Below, in pieces: positions 29,753-41,739 of a DNA stretch of 64,000 nucleotides; the first letter of the stretch is position 1; each line of letters opens with the position of its first letter. This DNA comes from an uncultured Poribacteria bacterium (GTDB lineage Bacteria; Poribacteria; WGA-4E; WGA-3G). Where the stretch lies: NCBI GenBank assembly GCA_958295855.1, contig OY282383.1, positions 183,178 to 247,177 on the forward strand, written 5' to 3'. The notes under the pieces are model-generated. The model was not told the DNA's origin. It ran no database searches and saw only the letters and a list, made by a program, of their open reading frames with translations. A program made the translations under genes and the position numbers.

Positions 29753-32700
29753 TTAGTCATCATCGTCACTTGCGGTATCAAGCGGTTGTCCCTGATAGGC
29801 AACTTCTATGTTCTGGAAGTCGGAGAAGCCGCTTCCCGCTGGGATAAGCCTACCGAGGATGACGTTTTCTTTTAGCCCGAAGAGCCTGTCGGTTTGACCG
29901 CTCACTGCCGCGTCTGTGAGCACTTTGGTCGTCTGCTGGAAGGAGGCCGCTGAGATAAAACTATCTGTGCTCAAGGAGGCTTTGCTGATGCTCTGGAGTA
30001 TGGGTTCTCCTGTGGCGGGTGTGCCGCCTGCGGTGTCGATGGCACTGTTTTGACGCTGGAACTTGTCGCGGGCGACTTCTTCGTTCGGGTAGAAGGCTGT
30101 ATCGCCGGACTCGGTGACGCGTATCTTTGTCAGCATCTGCCGGACGATGGCTTCGATATGCTTGTCGTTGATGACTCTTGCACCGTAGACTTTCTGGACT
30201 TCATCGACAAGGTATGCCCACACGGCTTCTTCGCCTTCGACGGGTACGCCGTTTATGAGGGTACGCCCGATTCTTAAAATATCGTGCGGGTTGAGGAATC
30301 CATCTGTGAGCGGTTGGCCTGCATCTACCCAGTCGCCTTCGGTGACTCGCCGTTTTTCATCAGGGATGGCATAGACTCTGCTGGTATGCCCTTCATCTAT
30401 GATGCGGTATGTGGGTACGCCTGCCTTGGTGCCTACGGCTTGTACGTGTCCCTCAATTTCGGCGATTTCTGCGGCATTTTCTCGCTTGGGACGCCGGGCT
30501 TCAAACAGTTCTGTGACGCGGGGTATGCCTGCTACGATGTCTCGGTTCGCGGTTTTCTCATGCAGTTCTGCGAGGGTGTCTTCTGCATCAATGCTATCCC
30601 CTTCTTCGACGGAGAAGGAGTAACCGAGAGGTATGAGATGCGGCACGTAAGCACCCTGACTGTTCACGATTTCGATATGCATGCGCATGTCGAGCTCGGC
30701 TGTTTCAAAGCCGGCGTATTGTGCAAAAGTTGTCTTGTATGCTTCTTCAGTCAATACCTCGCCGACGGTATGCCCACAATTGGGATGGAAGACATCCGTG
30801 ACGGTGTAGGTTTTCCGCTGGTTCTCCTTCTGTAGCTTGCGGTATTCCTTTTCGCCTAGAATGTGCCCAGGGTCGAACTGAGGGACAGAGGAATCTGTCC
30901 TTTCGTCCCGGGTGACCTGATTGACGCGTTCGACATCAAACGCTTTGTACTGCCGCTGGTATGATCGGTATTCCTTTTCAGTTAACTCGGTTCCGACTTC
31001 CAACTGCAGGTCGGGGTGATGTACACTAACGACGACATATAGACTCGTGAATTTTCCCGAAATTTCGGGATCTTCTTTACGCAACGACTTATACTGGGCT
31101 TCGCTTAAGCGCTGTCGCGATTCGGAGATCGCTCCTACCTCCTCGTAGTAGCGTTGCACTTCAAACCCCTTGTACTGTCGGCGGTGTGCGCTTGACGCTT
31201 TTTGTGTCAACAATTCACCAGGCTGTAGCGGGCACTCGGGGTGATTGACAGCAGTCACGTGATAGAGTCGTTCCGCCTCAAAGGGTCCCATTGTATTAAC
31301 AGCGGAGGAGGCTGTGATACCTGGGAAAGTGGCTCTGAACTGTTTCTCCTCACCATCGCTGAGCAAGTCACCTGGTTTGAGGGTGCAGTCCGGATGATGC
31401 ACATGGATGACGCGGTGCTTCAACTTTTGAACATTGAACCCAGGAAACCGCTTGTGTTCCTTACGTGCCGCGTCTGTTGTTAGCACGTCGCCGACCTTGA
31501 GGGGGAACTCGGGGTGATAGACTGCGGTGACAACATGCTTCGGGGCATCCAATTCTTTAACCTGAAACGCCCGATACTTTAGACGGGCCTCCTCGTAGGC
31601 GCGTTCGGTTAATTCTCTTCCAATCTGATACTCGGCTGGATCCAGCCCCGAGTTTGCGTCTCCTGTTATCTCAGTATGCATAACGTAGACAGGCTTTGAC
31701 TCCAAGTCAAAGGGGGTAAGCCACGAGGCGATGTCTGAAGCCGACACTTCCTCTCCAACCTCATAAGGGAAGTCTGCCCGAGTGCGCTCGGTTATGCGGT
31801 AGACACGTTCGAAGTGAGAATCCCGGGCGGAGTGGGTATGTTCCCCGCTTTGCGGGGAGAAGGGTTTTGCCCTGCTTTGCAGGGAATTACCCTCTTCACC
31901 CTTTTCAGACTCGCCTCCCTGGGTCGCGCCGACTGAGGCAAGTTCTGTCTCTGTAAAGAGCTGCCCTGTCTCTGAATCTCGGGAAAGCCATTCACCATCA
32001 AACCCTGTGTGCATCTTGGCCTTCAACTCATCTGCTTTTTCGAGTGTGAGCAGCTCCCTCGGTGTAACAGCAATGTCGGGGTGAAGCACTTGCGTCACAC
32101 GGTATTTCTGCGTTACAAAGCGGCCGAAGCCGTATTGCTTCCGGGCCTTGTCATATTGTGCCTGTGACAGCCGGGCGCCTTCCTGAAGGTGGCAGGCATG
32201 CTCCGATACAGCTGCCTCACTTAACTTTTCAACATGTTGAAAAAACGTCTCTTCAATCTCAGGCTCAAGTGAATCAATCTCACTGACGAGGGTTTCACTT
32301 GGTTGACGTACATTGCCGTATTTTTCTGTAAATTGTCGATACTCATCAGAGCTGCTGAACTTTTGGTGGCCTTCTCCGGGTTGTTCCGCATGGCAACCAA
32401 TGCAGAGTGCCGCCAGGTCCCTGGGTTCGTTATGCTTCGTTCCCCGCCGATGGTGGACATGGAGAAACTGTTTATCATCCTTAAGGGCTACACCACACTG
32501 CTCGCACTGCCAACCGGCCCTATCACGATATTTCTCTGAGAGAAACTTCCAAGCGTCTGATGAATAATCAAAATGCTGTCCGAGAACGCTATAACCGTTA
32601 TTTACTTTAGCACGCTCCGATACAGCAGTTACCTCATACTGCCAGGTCTCGGTCTCAAAGCCTTTATAACGTTGTGCGTTTTCAGTGTACTGCTTCTCAC

Positions 32701-35700
32701 TCAACAACTCACCTGGGAGCAATGGGCACTCAGGGTGGTTAACCTGGGTGACCTTGTAAGCAGGTGCATCAAGCTTTGCGCTAGAGGGATGAACCCCCTG
32801 CTTTGCAGCGGCAGACTGACCGATTGTGTTCATCATATCTACTTTGTTGTCGGTTTCCCATGCAGAAGATGGACTGTCGGAGCCGATGGCTATCCAGAGA
32901 TTTCCTTCTTGGCGCACTGTGCTGCCGGGGCGGAAATCGCGGAACCGCACGGTTCCCTTAACTTTCGCAAGAACTTTGCGCTGGCGCGCTTCTGAAATGG
33001 CCTCAACAGCCCCACCGGTGTGGAACGTCCGCATCGTTAGCTGCGTGCCGGGTTCACCAATGGATTGTGCAGCGATGATACCGATGGCTTCGCCGACATT
33101 GACAAGATTGTTGGTCGTCAAATCAATGCCGTAGCACTTTGAACAGACACCTTCGTCGGCTTGACAGGTGAGTACGGAACGCACTTTTACGACTTTGATG
33201 CGCGCGGCCTCAATCTGTGTGGCTTCTTCCTCGGATATCAATTGCTCGCTGGCTTTAAGCACTTGGCCTGTATCTGGGTGGATGATGTCTTCGGCGGCGG
33301 TTCGCCCTCTGATTTTAAATGCAAGGCTGCCGCCTTCAGTTGTAAACTTCTGAATGCTGTTCAGTGTCTTGCAATCTTCAGTGGTAACGCGGACATCTTG
33401 GGCAACATCTACTAACTTCCGGGTTAGATACCCGGATGCGGCGGTTTTCATTGCGGTATCTACTAAGCCTTTGCGCGAGCCGTAGGTGGAGTTGAAATAG
33501 TCTAACACATCTAAGCCTTCGCGATAGGAGGCGGTTATCGGTGTAGAGAGAATGTTGTTGCTCTGATCGGATTTCAAGCCGACAATTGCACTAATTTGCA
33601 TAAATGGGTTCTTCCGCGCGCGCGCTCCACTATCCGCCATAATATGCACTGGACTGAAACCTTTGACGGTTTCAGCGCCTATCTCTACGCCATCAGCATC
33701 TACGTTTGGATGAATCTTACGCGAGTCGCCGCGTTCAACGAGTGATGTCTCTAATTCGGGTAAGGCGGAGAACATCCTTTTCTCAACCTGTTCAATCGCT
33801 TCGAGCCAGATGCGAATTCGCTCATTCTCTAACTCGCCTGTGTCTGTAGCAGAGGTTGTCGCAAGGAGGTTATCCACTTCGGACTGGGCTTTGCTCACTA
33901 AAGCATCCCGGTTGTCGGGCCTGAGGTAATCTGTTATGCAGGGCGATATGCCGCTCAGGGTTGCATAGTGGAAGGCAAGTTTTTGGATTTCCTCAAGCAT
34001 GTTGACTGTAACACGCGTTCCTAATTCGTTGAAACAGTCGTAGACTATCTTGGATAACTCGCGTCCGCTGGCTTCGGCGTTGAAAAAAGGCACCTGCTGC
34101 CGGGAATGCTCGTCTATCCACGCATCCTCGGACGAACTTCCTTTGATTTTCTTGAGTTTATCTGGCAGTACTTCGTTGAAAATAACTCTGCCTACTGTCG
34201 TGAGTATGGGGCTGGCTGTGGCACGCGGCCTGCTACTTTCGTGCTTGCTACTTTCCCCAAAAAAGAGTTGGAGGCTATCGTGTAGTTTGAGTTGGCCGGC
34301 TGCGTGCGCGGCGATAACTTCTTCTGTATTTGAATAGCGACGGTGGTACCAAGGTTTTTGGCGGAGCTCATCCAGTCGCGATTCGGAGATGGCTCCTACC
34401 GATTGCGCGATAAACTCATGCAACAACTTTGCATCCTCAGCATGTCCCGGCAGTTCCTTCGTCAGGAAACTCGGCCCTAGCACCATGTCAAGCTCCGGTA
34501 CTGCAATTGGACCGCCGTGGGATGGCTTGAGGATATTATGACTGCTGAGCATTAGCAGCTTTGCCTCTGCCTGTGCCTCTACTGTGAGTGGCACATGCAC
34601 TGCCATCTGGTCGCCGTCAAAATCGGCGTTGAATGCCTTACACACAAGGGGAGGTATCCGTATCGATTTGCCTTCTACTAACACTGGCAGAAATGCCTGA
34701 ATGCCAAGCCGATGCAACGTGGGTGGGCGATTCAGTAACACGGGATGGTCGGCTATGACTTCCTCTAAGACTTCCCAGACAGGTGAATTGGACTCCACAT
34801 GCTCGGCGATGTGCTTCGCACGTTTTATCGTCTGCGTATAGTTATACGCTTGCAGCCTCTCGATAATAAATGGCTTGAACAATTCTACGGCCATTCGCTT
34901 GGGCAAACCGCATTGGTGGAGTCCCAGTTCGGGGCCGACGACGATGACGCTTCGCCCAGAGTAATCGACGCGTTTTCCGAGCAGATTCTGACGGAAGCGC
35001 CCGACTTTGCCTTTGAGGATATCGGAGAGTGACTTGAGCGGTCGGTTGCCAGGGCCGGCAACACGCCTGCCGTGCCGCCCGTTGTCAAAGAAGGCATCAA
35101 CGGCTTCTTGTAACATCCGTTTTTCGTTGCGCAAAATGACTTCGGGGGAACGGAGCTGTATTAACTTACGCAGCCGGTTGTTACGATTGATGACGCGGCG
35201 ATACAGATCGTTCAAGTCGCTTGTGGCAAAACGCCCGCCTTCGAGGGAAACAAGGGGCCGTAAGTCCGGGGGAATGACGGGTATCACATCCATAATCATC
35301 CACTCGGGGCGCTGTTCAGATGCGGCAAAGTCAGACAACTGTTTGAGCTGTTTGGATATCTTGAGCTTTTTCTGATGGCTTGTTGTTTCCGAAAGCAGTT
35401 CGGTGAGTTTCTCTTTCTCTGCCTGCAGGTCGATGCTGTTCAGAATCTCAGAAATGACTTCGGCGCCAGTCCCTGCGCGAAATTGACCGGGGTACTGGTG
35501 TTTCGCTTGCTCGTATTCTAATTCTGTTAGGACCTGACGCGGCTGCAGCGGACAGTCCGGGTCGCTGACGGATACAACAACAAAGGCTTCAAAATAGATG
35601 ATGCGTTCTACTTGGCGTGAGGAGAGATTACAAAAGGTGCCGATTCGTGACGGTATGCCTTTGAAGAACCAGATGTGGGAAACTGGGGCGGCGAGCTGGA

Positions 35701-36058
35701 TATAACCGAGGCGCTGCCTGCGTACGCGCTGCTGCGTTACCTCAACTCCACACCGGTCGCATATCACTCCCTTGTGCTTTATCCGTTTATATTTCCCACA
35801 ACTACACTCAAAGTCTTTTTGCGGGCCGAAGATGGCTTCGCAGAATAGCCCTTCCGGTTCTGGCCGGAGGGAGCGATAATTAATGGTTTCTGCCTTCCTC
35901 ACTTCGCCGCAGTTACACCTTCCCATCTCCGGACAGATAAAGGGTTCTCTTGTGGATTGGGATGTGCTACGACGCTTACAACAGGTTTGCTTGGCTAATG
36001 CTTTTATCTCCTGGGGTGAGGCTATTTTTATCGAAATACTGTCAAACGCTGTTTTCAT
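29753..36058 (-). CDS. rpoC: DNA-directed RNA polymerase subunit beta' with a very large trigger-loop insertion (SI3-like, about 800 aa) containing SBHM-type repeats, an HNH motif and in-frame repeat elements
   Basis: 2101 aa. Canonical beta' blocks: NADFDGDQM and MRTFHTGGA, then an insertion, then GIPRVTELFEARRP. RBS AGGAA within the upstream repeat. Confidence 0.95.
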   Translation of the reverse strand: MKTAFDSISIKIASPQEIKALAKQTCCKRRSTSQSTREPFICPEMGRCNCGEVRKAETINYRSLRPEPEGLFCEAIFGPQKDFECSCGKYKRIKHKGVICDRCGVEVTQQRVRRQRLGYIQLAAPVSHIWFFKGIPSRIGTFCNLSSRQVERIIYFEAFVVVSVSDPDCPLQPRQVLTELEYEQAKHQYPGQFRAGTGAEVISEILNSIDLQAEKEKLTELLSETTSHQKKLKISKQLKQLSDFAASEQRPEWMIMDVIPVIPPDLRPLVSLEGGRFATSDLNDLYRRVINRNNRLRKLIQLRSPEVILRNEKRMLQEAVDAFFDNGRHGRRVAGPGNRPLKSLSDILKGKVGRFRQNLLGKRVDYSGRSVIVVGPELGLHQCGLPKRMAVELFKPFIIERLQAYNYTQTIKRAKHIAEHVESNSPVWEVLEEVIADHPVLLNRPPTLHRLGIQAFLPVLVEGKSIRIPPLVCKAFNADFDGDQMAVHVPLTVEAQAEAKLLMLSSHNILKPSHGGPIAVPELDMVLGPSFLTKELPGHAEDAKLLHEFIAQSVGAISESRLDELRQKPWYHRRYSNTEEVIAAHAAGQLKLHDSLQLFFGESSKHESSRPRATASPILTTVGRVIFNEVLPDKLKKIKGSSSEDAWIDEHSRQQVPFFNAEASGRELSKIVYDCFNELGTRVTVNMLEEIQKLAFHYATLSGISPCITDYLRPDNRDALVSKAQSEVDNLLATTSATDTGELENERIRIWLEAIEQVEKRMFSALPELETSLVERGDSRKIHPNVDADGVEIGAETVKGFSPVHIMADSGARARKNPFMQISAIVGLKSDQSNNILSTPITASYREGLDVLDYFNSTYGSRKGLVDTAMKTAASGYLTRKLVDVAQDVRVTTEDCKTLNSIQKFTTEGGSLAFKIRGRTAAEDIIHPDTGQVLKASEQLISEEEATQIEAARIKVVKVRSVLTCQADEGVCSKCYGIDLTTNNLVNVGEAIGIIAAQSIGEPGTQLTMRTFHTGGAVEAISEARQRKVLAKVKGTVRFRDFRPGSTVRQEGNLWIAIGSDSPSSAWETDNKVDMMNTIGQSAAAKQGVHPSSAKLDAPAYKVTQVNHPECPLLPGELLSEKQYTENAQRYKGFETETWQYEVTAVSERAKVNNGYSVLGQHFDYSSDAWKFLSEKYRDRAGWQCEQCGVALKDDKQFLHVHHRRGTKHNEPRDLAALCIGCHAEQPGEGHQKFSSSDEYRQFTEKYGNVRQPSETLVSEIDSLEPEIEETFFQHVEKLSEAAVSEHACHLQEGARLSQAQYDKARKQYGFGRFVTQKYRVTQVLHPDIAVTPRELLTLEKADELKAKMHTGFDGEWLSRDSETGQLFTETELASVGATQGGESEKGEEGNSLQSRAKPFSPQSGEHTHSARDSHFERVYRITERTRADFPYEVGEEVSASDIASWLTPFDLESKPVYVMHTEITGDANSGLDPAEYQIGRELTERAYEEARLKYRAFQVKELDAPKHVVTAVYHPEFPLKVGDVLTTDAARKEHKRFPGFNVQKLKHRVIHVHHPDCTLKPGDLLSDGEEKQFRATFPGITASSAVNTMGPFEAERLYHVTAVNHPECPLQPGELLTQKASSAHRRQYKGFEVQRYYEEVGAISESRQRLSEAQYKSLRKEDPEISGKFTSLYVVVSVHHPDLQLEVGTELTEKEYRSYQRQYKAFDVERVNQVTRDERTDSSVPQFDPGHILGEKEYRKLQKENQRKTYTVTDVFHPNCGHTVGEVLTEEAYKTTFAQYAGFETAELDMRMHIEIVNSQGAYVPHLIPLGYSFSVEEGDSIDAEDTLAELHEKTANRDIVAGIPRVTELFEARRPKRENAAEIAEIEGHVQAVGTKAGVPTYRIIDEGHTSRVYAIPDEKRRVTEGDWVDAGQPLTDGFLNPHDILRIGRTLINGVPVEGEEAVWAYLVDEVQKVYGARVINDKHIEAIVRQMLTKIRVTESGDTAFYPNEEVARDKFQRQNSAIDTAGGTPATGEPILQSISKASLSTDSFISAASFQQTTKVLTDAAVSGQTDRLFGLKENVILGRLIPAGSGFSDFQNIEVAYQGQPLDTASDDDD
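32380..32515 (-). other. HNH nuclease motif embedded in the rpoC trigger-loop insertion
   Basis: Motif: CEQCG, then LHVHHRRG, then N, then LCIGCH, spaced as in HNH domains. No intein splice-block signatures nearby. Confidence 0.6.
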
Positions 36059-36462: not shown

Positions 36463-39400
36463 CTAAAGGTCTGAGTCGCGATTGAGTGTCACGTTCAGAC
36501 CAAGGCTCTGGAGTTCTCGCACGAGCACGTTAAACGATTCGGGCGTGCCGGGCGGGTTTGGGTTCAGCCCCTTAACTATGGATTCATAGATTTCCGATCT
36601 GCCTGCCACGTCGTCCGATTTGAGGGTGAGCATCTCCTGGAGCGTATGCGCAGCGCCATAGGCTTCAAGTGCCCACACTTCCATTTCACCGAGTCGCTGG
36701 CCGCCATGTTGCGCCTTACCGCCCAGAGGTTGCTGGGTGACAAGCGAGTAAGGGCCTGTGGAGCGCGCATGCATCTTGTCTGCTACAAGATGGTTCAGTT
36801 TAAGGAAATAGACGTAGCCGACTGTGACTTCTTGGGCAAAGGGTTCACCTGTCCTGCCATCATAAAGTACGCTTTTCCCTGTCTTTTTACTGCGTTCGGG
36901 GAGGTTCGTTTTTCCGAGCAGTTCAAAGATTTCAGTCTCTGTTGCTCCGTCAAATACGGGGGATTCTGCGCGTATGCCTAATGCGTGGCACGCCCATCCG
37001 AGGTGAATTTCTAAGATTTGCGCGACATTCATTCGTGATGGGACGCCTAAGGGGTTCAGCACGATTTCAACGGGTGTGCCATCTGGCATATAGGGCATAT
37101 CTTCAGCTGGCAGGATTTTTGCCACAACGCCTTTATTGCCATAACGGCCTGCCATTTTATCGCCAACGGAAATGGGACGTTTACTCGCGATATAAACTTT
37201 GACGCGTTTGATAACACCGGGTTTGAGTTCATCTCCCATCTCCAATTGCTTGAGGGCGCGTTCTTTCTCCTCTGTGTAGGCGGCTATCCTGCCTTGCGCC
37301 ATCTCCTCAACGCGGCGAATGTGTTCCATTGCGGCAGCATCCGTTACGCAAACGGATGATAACGCTATGCCAGGTGTGTCTAATAGCTCAGCTGTCACTG
37401 TGTCACCCGCAGCAAACGACGTTGGGGCAGCACTTTGTTCGGAATTCCCGCCCTGCCCCTTTGCCTCTTCACTGCTTTGCTTCCCGCCCGGTTTCCCATC
37501 ATGGGCAACCAGGAGGATAGCCTCCGCGTTGGTATGTTCCCCACTTTGCTTCCCGCCCTGCCCCTTTGCCTCTTCACCCTTTTCCCCATCGTGCCTAACC
37601 TGTGCCACTACAGGCAATGCAAGTTCACAACCAAGGAGCATGTTGCGTATTTCTTCGTCCTTCCGGTGGCGTATGGATGCGATGTGCGTCCTCCACGTCT
37701 CCTCGCTCTGCTTACGTTTGGATTCATAGCGCAATTCTTCAATTCTTGATGCGCCTGTTTCCGAACGTGTCCAGCCGCCGCGGCGTTGCAATCCATCTGG
37801 CTTTCGGGAAAACACTTTGACATCAATTACTATGCCTTCAACGCCGGGGCGGATGTAGGTGGAGGCATCGCGGACATCTCGTGCTTTTTCGCCGAAGATG
37901 GCGTGCAGCAGTTTTTCTTCGGGGCCATACTCACTTTCGCCTTTGGGCGTAATTTTTCCCACGAGGATACTGCCGGCACTGACAACACTGCCAACGCGGA
38001 TGATGCCTTCCTCATCAAGCTGCAAAAGGCGTTGCTCGCTCATGTTCGGAATGTCGCGCGTTATCTCCTCTGGGCCCACCTTCGTTTCGCGTGCCTCTAC
38101 TTCGACTTCTTCAATATGAATAGAGGTAAAGGTGTCCTTGCGGATGAGGGTTTCACTAATGAGGATAGAGTCCTCATAGTTGTGCCCGCCCCAGGGCATA
38201 TAGGCGCACAAGATATTTCTGCCGAGGGCGAGTTCACCTCCGTCGGTGGATGTGCCGTCGGCAATAACATCGCCTGCTTGCACTTTATCGCCTACAGAAA
38301 CGATTGGATGCTGGTGGATACAGGTGCCACTGTTACTGCGCTTGAAAGTCTGGAGTTTGTACTGGTCGTATCCCATTTCGCTAAATCCATGCTCGCCGGT
38401 GTCGGTATGCAGCACTTCGCCGGTGTGTATGAGGATTTCGTCAGCGGAGATACTTGCGACGGTGCCGCTGCGGATGGCGGTTCGGAGGGCTCCGGAGTCC
38501 AGTGCGGCGCGGGTTTCCATGCCTGTAGCTACAAGAGGGGCTTCCGGACGGATGAGGGGGACGGCTTGGCGTTGGTGGTTGGCTCCCATCAATGCGCGGT
38601 TCGCGTCTTCGTGCTCGAGGAACGGAACAAGGGAGGCAGAAACGCCAACTATCTGTTGCGGCGCGATGCCAACATAGTCAATTTCAGTGGATTTCGTTTC
38701 TTTGAATTCTATGACGTCGCCCTCTTTGGCATCGTTCCAGCGTCGCATGGCACGGACAGAATAGCCATGGCGGTTTTTCTTTCCTGCTTTATGGAAAGCA
38801 TCTGCGGATGCAATGGTACAGCCCAGCTCTGCATCTGCAGTCAAATACTCAATCCGGTCAGTGAGCTTACCCTCAACAATGACTTGATAGGGCGTTTCCA
38901 AGAACCCGTAGCGATTGACGCGTGCGAATGTAGCGAGCGATACAATCAGCCCGATTGAGGGCCCTTCTGGGGTTTCAAGCGGACATACACGCCCGAAATG
39001 CGTTTCGTGAACGTCGCGGACAGCTGCGGTTGCCCTGTCGCGATGTAGTCCGCCGGGCCCGATTGCGGAGATGCGGCGTTTGTGCGTCAACTCATCCAGG
39101 GGATTGATTTGTTGCATAAACTGCGAGAGTTGGTTAGAGCCAAAAAACTCACGGAGTGCCATCATGAGTGGTTTGGGGTTCACCAATGCGCCGGGTGTTG
39201 CTTTGGCGCGGTCCTTGAGGATATCGACAGCACTGAGGCGTTCGCGTGTCGTTCTACGGATTTGGAATAATCCCATTCTGAATTGGTTTTCTAGCAGTTC
39301 CCCGATAACTCTGACGCGCCGATTTTCGAGATTGTCCTGGTCGTCCTTGGGTACAAGTTTGTTCTGCACCTGTATGAGGTATGCCAGTGTTGCGGTGATA

Positions 39401-41013
39401 TCCTCTCCGGTGCGGCGGAGTGTGCGGACGCTTTCGTCTGGCATTGTCCATTTCCCCTGCGTGCGTGCTGCGGTATATCCATCAAGCGTGCGGGGTGTTC
39501 CGTCGGGTACCTCTCCATAAATAGGTAGTTCTCCCAATTTCTGATTGAGTTTGTATCTGCCGACAACGCCGAGGTCGTAGCGTTGTGGGTCGAAGAGTAG
39601 CCAATCGAGTTGTCGTTGTGCATTCTCTAGGGTAGCGGAATCCCCCGGTCTGAGGGTTCGGAAGATCTCCAGTCGTGCGGCGTCGCCTAGGGTATGCTGG
39701 GAGGCGTATTCAGATTCCCGGTCTTTTTCAAGGGTGTTGCGTAAAAATCGGATACGTTGGCAATCCTCTGGATGGAGGACGGTGAGTGCTTGGATGCCGG
39801 CTTCGGTGAGGCGGTCCAACTCAGTCTGGGTGAGTAGGGTATTGGCTGTGATGAGGCATTCACCAGTGTCGGGTGAAATGACTGGTTCAGCACAGACGCG
39901 CTCGACCTGGTTCTGAATATCCGTGGGTTGCAGGGGTGTAGCCGTAAACATTGCGTCTCCGTCATGGTAACCGTATCTGGCTCTCGCTTCTAGGTATTCG
40001 GCTTGGGTTAAGATTTGCCCGGGAGTCAACTCACATCCGGAGTTTTGAATAGCCAGGATGCGGTGGAGAGGTTCGGTCTGAAAGCCCTTGGATTTTCTGC
40101 GGGAGCTTGCGCGTTCTTTCTCGGTTATAATTTGTCCCTGCTCCAAGGGGCAGTCTGCGTCTGTGACTTCGGTAACGCGATGGCATTTTTCGGTGTCAAT
40201 CCCGTTATATTGCTTGCGTGCGTGCCTCAGTTCAGTGCTCGTTAGCAGTTGCCCGGGCGTGAGGGGACATTTGGCAAGGGAGACTTCTGTGACGCGCCAG
40301 CCTTGAAGTACGAGGCGTTCGGTTTTGGCATAAAGTTTCAAGATGTCGGCATCAGTTTCCCAGCCGAGGGCGCGGAGGAGTACGGTTGCTGGGAGTTTCT
40401 TGCGCTTGTCCATGCGGACATAGATTTGCTCCTTGGTATCCACCTCAAACTCTACCCATGCGCCGCGGTAAGGGATAATTTGTGCTGTGGGGCTTCGTTC
40501 GGTTGTCAAAGCTTTGTCTTTGGCACTCTCGAGGAAGATAACGCCCGGTGAGCGATGCAACTGACTGACTATGACTCTTTCGCTGCCATTAATAATAAAA
40601 CTTCCGCTCTCCGTCATCAATGGGACTTCTCCGAGATAGACGTCGGATTCTCGGATATCGACGACGTGGGGTTCGGTTGCATCCGGGTCTGCCTCGCGTA
40701 TGACGAGCATGACGCGTGCAGTAAGGGATACCTGATAACTCATCCCGCGTGCGACGCATTCTTGTAAGGTATATTTCGGCGTACCCAGGGAGTAGTGGAC
40801 AAATTCAAGGGTGTTGACTTCTGAGAAGTCCCGGATAGGGAACACCTCACGAAAAACGGCTTCAAGCCCATAATTTTCGCGTTTTTGGCCCTTGGTGGGT
40901 TCGACATGTCGCTGTAAGAAGTCTGCATAAGCTCGCTGTTGGGTTTCTATAAGATTCGGAAGCGGGGTTTGAACCTGTGTTTTGGCAAAAGAGATCCTGG
41001 GTTGTTTGTTCAC
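36463..41013 (-). CDS. rpoB: DNA-directed RNA polymerase subunit beta with lineage-specific insertions (BBM2/SBHM-like repeats in the N-terminal third; low-complexity tandem repeat in the SI2 region)
   Basis: ORF 36463..41166. Start moved to the GTG at 41011-41013 (AAGGAGA 7 nt upstream) because the ORF's upstream extension runs through a repeat element. Canonical beta blocks present, for example GDKMAGRYGNKGVVAKI. Confidence 0.9.
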   Translation of the reverse strand: MNKQPRISFAKTQVQTPLPNLIETQQRAYADFLQRHVEPTKGQKRENYGLEAVFREVFPIRDFSEVNTLEFVHYSLGTPKYTLQECVARGMSYQVSLTARVMLVIREADPDATEPHVVDIRESDVYLGEVPLMTESGSFIINGSERVIVSQLHRSPGVIFLESAKDKALTTERSPTAQIIPYRGAWVEFEVDTKEQIYVRMDKRKKLPATVLLRALGWETDADILKLYAKTERLVLQGWRVTEVSLAKCPLTPGQLLTSTELRHARKQYNGIDTEKCHRVTEVTDADCPLEQGQIITEKERASSRRKSKGFQTEPLHRILAIQNSGCELTPGQILTQAEYLEARARYGYHDGDAMFTATPLQPTDIQNQVERVCAEPVISPDTGECLITANTLLTQTELDRLTEAGIQALTVLHPEDCQRIRFLRNTLEKDRESEYASQHTLGDAARLEIFRTLRPGDSATLENAQRQLDWLLFDPQRYDLGVVGRYKLNQKLGELPIYGEVPDGTPRTLDGYTAARTQGKWTMPDESVRTLRRTGEDITATLAYLIQVQNKLVPKDDQDNLENRRVRVIGELLENQFRMGLFQIRRTTRERLSAVDILKDRAKATPGALVNPKPLMMALREFFGSNQLSQFMQQINPLDELTHKRRISAIGPGGLHRDRATAAVRDVHETHFGRVCPLETPEGPSIGLIVSLATFARVNRYGFLETPYQVIVEGKLTDRIEYLTADAELGCTIASADAFHKAGKKNRHGYSVRAMRRWNDAKEGDVIEFKETKSTEIDYVGIAPQQIVGVSASLVPFLEHEDANRALMGANHQRQAVPLIRPEAPLVATGMETRAALDSGALRTAIRSGTVASISADEILIHTGEVLHTDTGEHGFSEMGYDQYKLQTFKRSNSGTCIHQHPIVSVGDKVQAGDVIADGTSTDGGELALGRNILCAYMPWGGHNYEDSILISETLIRKDTFTSIHIEEVEVEARETKVGPEEITRDIPNMSEQRLLQLDEEGIIRVGSVVSAGSILVGKITPKGESEYGPEEKLLHAIFGEKARDVRDASTYIRPGVEGIVIDVKVFSRKPDGLQRRGGWTRSETGASRIEELRYESKRKQSEETWRTHIASIRHRKDEEIRNMLLGCELALPVVAQVRHDGEKGEEAKGQGGKQSGEHTNAEAILLVAHDGKPGGKQSSEEAKGQGGNSEQSAAPTSFAAGDTVTAELLDTPGIALSSVCVTDAAAMEHIRRVEEMAQGRIAAYTEEKERALKQLEMGDELKPGVIKRVKVYIASKRPISVGDKMAGRYGNKGVVAKILPAEDMPYMPDGTPVEIVLNPLGVPSRMNVAQILEIHLGWACHALGIRAESPVFDGATETEIFELLGKTNLPERSKKTGKSVLYDGRTGEPFAQEVTVGYVYFLKLNHLVADKMHARSTGPYSLVTQQPLGGKAQHGGQRLGEMEVWALEAYGAAHTLQEMLTLKSDDVAGRSEIYESIVKGLNPNPPGTPESFNVLVRELQSLGLNVTLNRDSDL

Positions 41014-41039
41014 TTGATGCGGTCTCCTTTTGGTACCGG

Positions 41040-41739
41040 ACTCTGGTGGTGGGCAGGCACAAGGCACTGCCCGTACGGCGCAATGAAATCCCGAGAATAA
41101 AAAAGTTGTTTGCTTTTCGCGCACAACTTGGCTTGCAAGCTTCGCCAAAAAGTGGTGGGCAGGCACAAGGCACTGCCCCTACGGACGCGCCGCCTTTTAA
41201 CCTATTGGCAATAGCATAACAGAATATTATACACTATAATTAGGGGAAAGTCAAGAAAAAATGCATTTTTGTTATTCCTTGCGGAGTAATCAGCATAAGT
41301 AAGAAATAAAAAAGTTGTTCATAAAAATTCACAACTTGGTATGAAACCCCTGCAAAGCAGGGGCAAATACCATTGGCAAGACACATCCAGCAATGCACTG
41401 TAGCTCTCGTTGGAGGTTTCTTATGCAACCTTTCGGGCCAATGGCTGCCCGCCCACCCGTTTCCGTATTGTGGCTAAAAAAGGGGGTGCTTGTTTTTGAC
41501 GTTAATCAAGCTAGGGCATTTAGTTTTCAGTAGTTTTGAGTAAGGGGCGTGGTTGGGTGAGGATTAAGAATTTTCGTCTATGCCTAGTATTTTGATTGGA
41601 TTATGTGGTGTTAATGGCATTGGAGCTCTCGTCGGAGGTTTTGGTCTATGTCTAGTATAATGTGGTATAAAGGTTGACACACCACGTTAACTTGGTATAC
41701 TGTATTAAGGTACGGAAACCCCGTGCTACGGGAGACAAA
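41040..41739. repeat. Repeat-dense intergenic region (GGGCAGGCACAAGGCACTGCCC x2, palindromic element, CCCGCCCACCCGTTTCCG, GGGCATTTAGTTTTCAG, and others)
   Basis: Module families shared with other intergenic regions. Confidence 0.8.

Follow-up and report, generated by a model that had tools for sequence, protein, structure and literature searches.

We propose that a nuclease cassette lodged in the gene for the beta' subunit of RNA polymerase (rpoC) of an uncultured Poribacteria bacterium is a homing-like element that acts independently of splicing and is tolerated in a surface repeat of the subunit, a reading to which we give somewhat better than even chances. The gene lies within a stretch of 64,000 nucleotides (hereafter the window; assembly GCA_958295855.1, contig OY282383.1, positions 183,178 to 247,177 of the forward strand), and the cassette sits inside a large insertion in the trigger loop of the polymerase, where it encodes a zinc-finger HNH domain of the type found in ZorE. 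An earlier note on the window had recognised an HNH motif at this place and read it as a domain fusion, either a degenerate homing-endonuclease relic or a functional DNA/RNA-binding module. Our comparison with 120 Poribacteria beta' cluster representatives, the survey set used throughout, leads to a revised reading in which occupied and empty alleles of the same site are set against each other.

The cassette and its borders

The cassette and its non-catalytic parts lie in the window as follows.

32200 to 32626, minus strand: nuclease cassette, including both copies of a 13-bp repeat (protein and DNA alignment with the closest cassette-less relative, P0152 / L082)
32614 to 32626, minus strand: left (5') direct-repeat copy, GCTGTATCGGAGC, which encodes AVSE (DNA comparison with L082)
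32200 to 32212, minus strand: right (3') direct-repeat copy, GCTGTATCGGAGC (DNA comparison with L082)
32213 to 32290, minus strand: acidic C-terminal linker of the cassette (PSETLVSEIDSLEPEIEETFFQHVEKLSEA), without homologues and outside every family match

Relative to the empty allele, the insertion measures 414 bp, or 138 codons (amino acids 1149-1286), and is in frame. The alignment gap is clean, the 138 extra codons of the window falling between YEVTAVSE and ACHLQEGARLS, within one repeat unit of the host protein. The bordering 13-mer is a perfect repeat that occurs twice in the window and nowhere else in it, against a single copy at the empty site of L082, which reads TGGCAGTATGAGGTAACTGCTGTATCGGAGCAGGCCTGCCGC and is also given as TGGCAGTATGAGGTAACTGCTGTATCGGAGCAGGCCTGCC. 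A longer, decayed target duplication around the 13-mer was ruled out, as alignment scores there were no better than those of shuffled sequences. The fraction of G+C at third codon positions is 0.42 in the cassette against a gene mean of 0.56 (standard deviation 0.044), the lowest 420-nt segment of the gene standing at 0.414, and this deviant composition points to a probably recent acquisition. The acidic linker is modelled by AlphaFold as a helix, at low confidence. The earlier note had allowed that the Cys/His pattern might be a feature of beta' throughout the lineage, and this did not survive alignment, since the domain belongs to a discrete cassette that the closest relative lacks.

The HNH domain

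The catalytic part of the cassette comprises the following features.

32291 to 32587, minus strand: ZorE-type HNH (beta-beta-alpha-metal, zinc-finger) nuclease domain, amino acids 1158-1256, about 95 residues (profile and phmmer matches)
32495 to 32506, minus strand: C1185-E-Q-C1188, first zinc CxxC (C31 and C34 of the family alignment, both invariant)
32450 to 32455, minus strand: H1202-H1203, His-His pair of the HNH active site (H48 invariant and H49 at least 90% conserved in an alignment of 56 sequences)
32390 to 32404, minus strand: C1219-I-G-C1222-H1223, second zinc CxxC and helix His, a presumed metal ligand (C65 and C68 invariant, H69 at least 90% conserved)

The motif was found exactly as the earlier note had written it, residues 1185-1226 reading CEQCGVALKDDKQFLHVHHRRGTKHNEPRDLAALCIGCHAEQ (window 32381-32506) with C1185-E-Q-C1188 followed by H1200-V-H1202-H1203, D1214-L and C1219-I-G-C1222-H1223, but the homologous domain is larger than this motif and extends over about amino acids 1158-1256. 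From established knowledge of HNH enzymes we take the pair H1202-H1203 to serve as metal ligand and presumed general base. The profile search that had been suggested as a check divided according to subfamily: the match of the segment to Pfam PF01844 is not significant (E 0.064, with 13.9 bits where the cut-off is 21.4) and HNH stays below threshold with the whole protein too, whereas ZorE-type HNH profiles match significantly, namely NCBIfam ZorE NF041791 (E 6.8e-14, 51.5 bits, profile positions 189-262 of 358) and four PADLOC ZorE HNH models (E 9e-25 to 8e-18 over amino acids 1158-1247), with weaker NCBIfam matches to the HNH domains of IscB and YajD. The shortfall against PF01844 is a sensitivity limit for the ZorE-type subfamily, not a lack of homology. 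An exhaustive phmmer search of 1.84 billion representatives returned 1507 relatives at E <= 1e-3 (best E 4e-37), the 150 top-scoring ones being without exception small proteins (82-538 amino acids), mostly 40-55% identical over about 90 residues; some relatives are named 'HNH endonuclease' or 'McrA' in their sources and some carry PF01844.

The family consensus, y...W...S..yR....W.CE.C...L......Lh.HH..G...n.p.nL.aLCi.CHaeqp...H...k....y..f...y, exceeds the classical motif. In the alignment of 56 sequences C31, C34, H48, C65 and C68 are invariant and S20, L45, H49, L61, L64, H69 and H77 are conserved in at least 90%, and every one of these residues is kept in the window copy, the catalytic His and the metal ligands whose conservation the earlier note had wished to see inspected being among them. 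AlphaFold, given the family alignment, models the domain in the beta-beta-alpha-metal fold with a mean predicted local distance difference test score (pLDDT) of 88 and a predicted template modelling score of 0.79. The ZorE-profile matches together with the conserved residues lead us to conclude, from homology, that the domain is a genuine zinc-finger HNH of the ZorE type whose predicted active-site pattern is intact, as the earlier note had held. Its suggestion of a degenerate homing-endonuclease relic finds no favour, as no family-conserved residue has been lost and composition points to recent acquisition. A word-indexed protein search with the segment gave no match and a PDB sequence search gave no relative, while a profile search with the family alignment returned 41 small free-standing proteins only and zero further host genes. 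A metagenome scan with the single cassette gave nine loci at no more than 53% identity, mostly ZorE-like, and no second copy of the window type.

Several free-standing relatives were seen in informative surroundings. P0014 (323 amino acids) is a DnaB_C-like ATPase fragment with a C-terminal HNH of the same family, 52% identical to the window domain. P0015 is preceded by a MotA-like gene and a further small one in an arrangement resembling a Zorya II operon (zorA-zorB-zorE-like), with AAA and HNH/WYL genes after it, and P0005 belongs to a defence island, with a CBASS cyclase, a SAVED protein and a patatin next to it; the two neighbourhoods were read at L100 4144-7855 and L101 5001-9059, respectively. 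The best free match to the window HNH, P0001, is held in the rpoB gene of L088 (7015-11924; metagenome contig ERZ25067264 ctg802328_10x), a gene whose product is 57% identical to that of the window rpoB. P0001 comprises the HNH twice in tandem, with one degenerate copy, and its 5' junction is in frame after IRFLRNTLQRD; the contig is at 10x, and in the surrounding rpoB region, with its duplications, stop codons and frameshifts, true disruption and assembly error are indistinguishable.

Occupancy of the site among Poribacteria

Six of the 120 representatives are occupied, three by an HNH cassette (the beta' of the window, P0156 and P0157) and three by a PD-(D/E)xK nuclease, and at least 100 have the empty spacing; the empty sites share TGGCAGTAYGARGTWACTGCTGT. 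The closest relatives without the cassette are P0152 (core distance 0.055, same metagenome, ERZ19489113), P0153 and P0154. A GTDB genome scan with beta' recovered distant beta' proteins of about 1340 amino acids at no more than 50% identity, and none from Poribacteria. In P0173, P0212 and P0251 the occupant is a REase_MTES_1575 domain (PF18741, PD-(D/E)xK), which follows the same YEVT codons and matches at E 1.8e-24, above the curated cut-off; in P0173 its cassette measures 570 bp, or 190 codons, in frame.

P0173 amino acids 1130-1236 (locus L098 1001-7267): REase_MTES_1575 domain (profile match PF18741)

The window HNH and the second HNH type, that of P0156 and P0157, are 45-46% identical, the window type being nearer to free-standing proteins (up to 57%), and the two HNH cassette types may or may not share a common origin. 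Judged by these alleles, the site is a hot spot for nuclease cassettes with mobile-element behaviour.

Three further observations concern these cassettes. In P0157 (L083) the HNH cassette begins with a partial tandem duplication, EGDPNFSYEPEAWTEILLPVLEGDPNFSYKSEAWTEISQKC, at about amino acids 1112-1150. An extra, diverged host half-unit (CxLxxGxxLSxxEYxxAxxxYGF) stands at the 3' end of both cassettes of the second HNH type, and also of the REase cassettes in P0173 and P0212. Amino acids 1899-1991 of P0266 match REase_MTES_1575 (E 1e-18) elsewhere in beta', C-terminal to the trigger-loop insertion, which suggests a second beta' insertion site.

Signs of mobility in relatives

Occupied and empty alleles occur in nearly identical strains. 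P0156, with the HNH, and the empty P0180 are at a core distance of 0.001, their contigs (68x and 24x) both coming from sample ERZ25071132; P0157, with the HNH, and the empty P0206 are at 0.002; and P0173, with the REase, and the empty P0189 (L099) are at 0.000. The adjacent rpoB differs by 0.5-0.6% in both HNH pairs, and rpoC outside the divergent tract and the insertion diverges by 0-3% in each of the three pairs. Directly 3' of the cassette there is a tract of about 800 nt at 8-42% divergence in P0156/P0180 and one of about 150 nt at 28% in P0157/P0206, and P0173/P0189 has about 600 nt downstream at 5-53% together with about 25 nt changed upstream. In the 3' tract P0180 matches its own clade (0.966 to P0169) whereas P0156 does not (0.743), and it is thus the occupied allele that is the recombinant. 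All three pairs have the appearance of flanks co-converted with the cassette.

The second HNH type can moreover be followed between lineages. The host genes of P0156 and P0157 differ at synonymous sites by a dS of 0.72-0.98, with a ratio of nonsynonymous to synonymous rates (dN/dS) of 0.07-0.17, against a dS of only 0.088 and a dN/dS of 0.73 for the HNH; in a sliding window nucleotide divergence is 7-8% over the cassette and 18-24% over the host gene. Horizontal transfer of the second HNH type relative to the host gene is thereby shown. The unit of about 50 codons following the HNH holds 0 synonymous and 14 nonsynonymous differences between the two, and the helix His (position H69) has become Arg in P0156. 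The second HNH type is thus under relaxed constraint and decaying, as in a homing cycle. The degenerate copy of P0001 has Tyr at the helix His and HR in place of HH.

Strain-level presence and absence, transfer, co-converted flanks and a second nuclease at the same codons together fit a mobile homing-like element better than the settled domain fusion or binding module that the earlier note had in mind.

The host insertion and the place of the cassette within it

The larger units that hold the cassette are these.

29753 to 36058, minus strand: rpoC, RNA polymerase beta' of Candidatus Poribacteria type, 2101 amino acids (open reading frame and translation, TIGR02386)
30530 to 33007, minus strand: trigger-loop (SI3-position) insertion, amino acids 1018-1843, 826 residues, bounded by MRTFHTGGA and GIPRVTELFEARRP

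The rpoC open reading frame runs to 6306 nt, and its product scores 1434 bits against TIGR02386 and also matches Pfam Rpb1 domains 1-5, its nearest named full-length homologues being Candidatus Poribacteria beta' proteins of 1890-2400 amino acids each. Both trigger-loop helices are recognisable, at MRTFHTGGA (amino acids 1009-1017) and GIPRVTELFEARRP (amino acids 1844-1857), and the insertion between them is at the position of E. coli SI3; the earlier note was right to place the HNH here, between repeat units. A large insertion is normal for the phylum, since the baseline length measured in the 120 relatives is about 650 amino acids, with a range of 636-925 amino acids and additional repeat units in P0155.

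Most of the insertion consists of units of about 40 amino acids of the type YxVTxVxHPxCPLxxGxLLTxxxYxxxxxxYKGF. An AlphaFold model of amino acids 996-1867, built from 44 Poribacteria sequences, has a mean pLDDT of 72; in it the host units are repeated strand-strand-helix-strand modules at about 90, and the cassette reaches 36-58, low because the alignment is shallow there. The cassette splits one unit at a hairpin position, after the first strand (YEVTAVSE) and before the CxLxxG loop. Foldseek with the 872-residue insertion model, an elongated multi-domain chain and therefore a poor query, gave weak local matches only, to the cytochrome f small domain (39 amino acids, probability 1.0), to the Synechococcus SI3-tail (probability 0.63) and to E. 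coli beta'. The earlier description of the flanking repeats as similar to the sandwich-barrel hybrid motif (SBHM) is therefore compatible but not established: an SBHM fold for the Poribacteria units is consistent with the model and not firmly assigned.

A model for spread without splicing, and its alternatives

In the model that we favour, the cassette would be translated as part of beta' and tolerated there because the repeat module whose surface hairpin it occupies does not belong to the conserved catalytic core of the subunit. When a cassette-less rpoC allele enters the cell, the ZorE-type HNH would nick or cut the conserved target that codes for WQYEVTAV, and recombinational repair would copy the cassette, with some flanking sequence, into the empty allele. 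After such spread the nuclease could decay and be lost, and the site could be invaded again, also by the unrelated PD-(D/E)xK cassette. We infer that the nuclease is the driver of spread, and the window HNH would accordingly be expected to have nuclease activity and site specificity. More tentatively, and as a possibility that we would not yet bet on, these elements may form a new class of splicing-free homing elements, in-frame HNH and PD-(D/E)xK cassettes that colonise the surface repeats of beta' and possibly of beta, so that RNA polymerase carries the nuclease, perhaps delivering it by transcription, and acquires domains by this route.

A number of points weigh against this model. Activity and target specificity of the cassette are predictions, and ZorE, its closest characterised relative, nicks DNA with rather little specificity and does not act at a defined site; it would also be unusual for an agent of homing to be fixed within a 2101-residue polymerase subunit. 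The middle Asn of the HNH motif is Asp in the window (D1214), as it is in the nearest relatives, against Asn in the wider consensus. The 13-bp repeat resembles a target-site duplication and is not accounted for by double-strand-break-repair homing, and may be either a record of the original illegitimate integration (for example through staggered nicks) or a means of precise loss. The window cassette type is known from one sequence and its nearest empty allele is about 5% divergent, so that no co-conversion tract or transfer can be demonstrated for it; what speaks for the window type is that it is cleanly inserted, bordered by the 13-bp repeat and deviant in composition, the evidence of mobility coming from the second HNH type and the PD-(D/E)xK type. 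Divergent flanks and a patchy distribution are, in addition, expected from ordinary recombination without any drive by a nuclease, and free-standing relatives in defence loci also fit a role that benefits the host.

In one alternative the nuclease is inactive or irrelevant to spread and the cassettes are passive passengers, neutral or slightly deleterious insertions that move by homologous recombination and leave by repeat-mediated deletion. The relaxed constraint on the second HNH type would follow naturally, as would the degenerate copies (His to Arg in P0156; HH to HR and CH to CY in copy 1 of P0001), the direct repeat would permit precise deletion, and the insertion region is plastic anyway, to judge from its range of lengths and the extra units of P0155. 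Left unexplained are why three independent cassettes at one site should all be nucleases, of two unrelated folds, how a cassette crossed between lineages whose host genes have a dS of about 0.8, and why the window copy has kept every conserved residue; we therefore regard passive carriage as unlikely.

Also unlikely is a nuclease tethered to RNA polymerase for the good of the host, in defence against phages or plasmids or in transcription-coupled processing of DNA or RNA, and exchanged between strains as defence genes are. Such a role would suit membership of the ZorE family, whose namesake is an active nickase (PMC11890865), and the neighbourhoods of P0015 and P0005; it would also suit the recruitment of two unrelated nucleases to one place, the reading frame kept by all cassettes, the intact catalytic residues of the window copy, and the fast evolution and patchy distribution that are typical of defence genes as well. 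Yet only six representatives are occupied, occupancy differs between near-identical strains of one sample, the dN/dS of 0.73 and the metal-ligand His lost in P0156 are not what a useful enzyme should display, a useful nuclease need not occupy one exact codon of an essential gene, and an unregulated nickase on RNA polymerase would be hazardous.

We think it very improbable that the cassette is an atypical self-removing element, whether an intein of a new kind, a translational bypass or an intron, which would leave mature beta' without the domain. The essential host gene would be protected by such removal, and the identical 13-nt borders recall the matched take-off and landing sites of bypassing. 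Known bypass gaps are of about 50 nt, and bypassing between 13-nt repeats across a gap of 414 nt is implausible. No Hint or intein family matches at E <= 10 across the 826-residue insertion, and the cassette begins with RAKV (Arg-Ala-Lys) and ends with SEH (Ser-Glu-His) before Ala, without Cys, Ser, Thr or His-Asn junction residues, which bears out the earlier conclusion that it is not a conventional intein. The 95-residue HNH leaves only about 40 of the 138 amino acids outside it, no space for a splicing domain. An intron was rejected as well, as an Rfam E-value scan of 31900-32900 gave one chance-level match to a long non-coding RNA and the frame is open throughout; in all three cassette types an open frame indicates read-through. 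Between amino acids 1120 and 1191 there is no in-frame ATG, GTG or TTG, so that the HNH can be made only as part of beta'; the other frames hold at most 88 amino acids, without similarity, and an out-of-frame reading frame like that of ShiLan (see below) is not needed, as the HNH is in the host frame. The junction peptides of the unspliced protein would read VTAVSER-AK and AAVSEHACHLQEGAR, and the domain presumably remains in mature beta'.

An assembly chimera or sequencing artefact, which a metagenome assembly as source might bring to mind, is hardly credible, since the identical 2101-residue protein occurs on two separate contigs (5.5 Mb and 17.9 kb), the insertion keeps the reading frame, and homologous cassettes lie at the same site in independent samples.

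Comparison with known systems

To our knowledge, homing endonucleases have been thought to survive in essential genes only within self-splicing introns or inteins. The Poribacteria cassettes resemble these in occurring sporadically, at a single conserved site within an essential and conserved gene, in horizontal transfer, divergent (co-converted) flanks and nuclease decay, and in the different nuclease families that occupy one site. They differ in having no self-splicing element, so that the nuclease appears to stay in the host protein, in the 13-bp direct repeat that borders the window insertion, and in that cleavage of the empty site is putative.

The sole precedent found, described in 2025, is the ShiLan domain of a mycobacteriophage DNA methylase, a homing, non-splicing in-frame insertion with an HNH that is thought to be tolerated as a protruding loop (PMC11855218). 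The window cassette is likewise an in-frame insertion with homing-like features, without a detectable splicing domain and with an HNH. In ShiLan, by contrast, translation of the HNH starts at an internal GTG in a different frame and the host is a non-essential phage gene (PMC11855218), whereas the Poribacteria HNH is in the host frame, without a start of its own, in the essential beta' subunit. What would be new here is a homing-type nuclease element, in itself of a known kind, that is apparently unspliced and lies within RNA polymerase.

ZorE, the effector of type II Zorya anti-phage systems, is a Mg/Mn-dependent DNA nickase (PMC11890865). It shares its C-terminal HNH region with the window domain, the motif W..S..yR....W.CE.C...LH.HH...nL.aLCigCHaeqp...H being common to both, but the window matches this region of about 90 amino acids only (51.5 bits against a family cut-off of 600), lacks the N-terminal domain of ZorE and lies within rpoC, not in a free-standing gene beside zorA and zorB. 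REase_MTES_1575 is found at the identical beta' site in P0173, P0212 and P0251, with the same polymorphism and flank pattern, and differs from the HNH in being of unrelated fold and sequence and in being absent from the window.

With the SI3 (beta'In6) of E. coli and cyanobacteria the Poribacteria insertion has in common its point of insertion in the trigger loop and its repeated small beta-rich modules; the fold of its units is, unlike theirs, not firmly SBHM. We know of no SI3 that carries a nuclease domain, and a literature search for an HNH or other nuclease in a trigger-loop or SI3 insertion, or for a Poribacteria polymerase insertion, found nothing. The insertion is comparable in size to cyanobacterial Si3, which consists of eight SBHMs (PMC10895346).

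Two unrelated nuclease folds are thus lodged, unspliced as far as sequence tells, in the catalytic subunit of the only RNA polymerase that the cell has, and population signatures of active mobility are seen for the second HNH type and the PD-(D/E)xK type at least. Selfish DNA would then have a strategy beyond those already known. One would not have expected a nuclease to be tethered to the mobile trigger-loop insertion, and the question arises of how the cell tolerates it. The site also offers a concrete, ongoing example of lineage-specific domain addition to RNA polymerase, and the idea is directly testable, because occupied and empty alleles coexist in the same metagenomes.

Observations on the neighbouring rpoB

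The rpoB gene (window 36463-41166, minus strand) encodes, at about amino acids 290-400, three copies of the repeat unit of about 40 amino acids that makes up the beta' insertion, for example WRVTEVSLAKCPLTPGQLLTSTELRHARKQYNGI, and a single repeat family has therefore expanded in both large polymerase subunits of this lineage. A low-complexity peptide, GEKGEEAKGQGGKQSGEHT, forms a 37-residue indel in rpoB (window 37414-37599) when compared with L082. Its motif recurs in the beta' insertion (window 31835-31906) and, near-identical, in the beta' of P0152, and DNA matches of 16 nt and 19 nt tie rpoB and rpoC together at it; the peptide may be a small in-frame repeat element or a product of gene conversion. 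Mechanical calling begins the rpoB open reading frame 51 codons ahead of the start assigned in the relative (VNKQPRISFAK), an extension at window 41014-41166, minus strand; translation probably begins at the GTG near position 41013.

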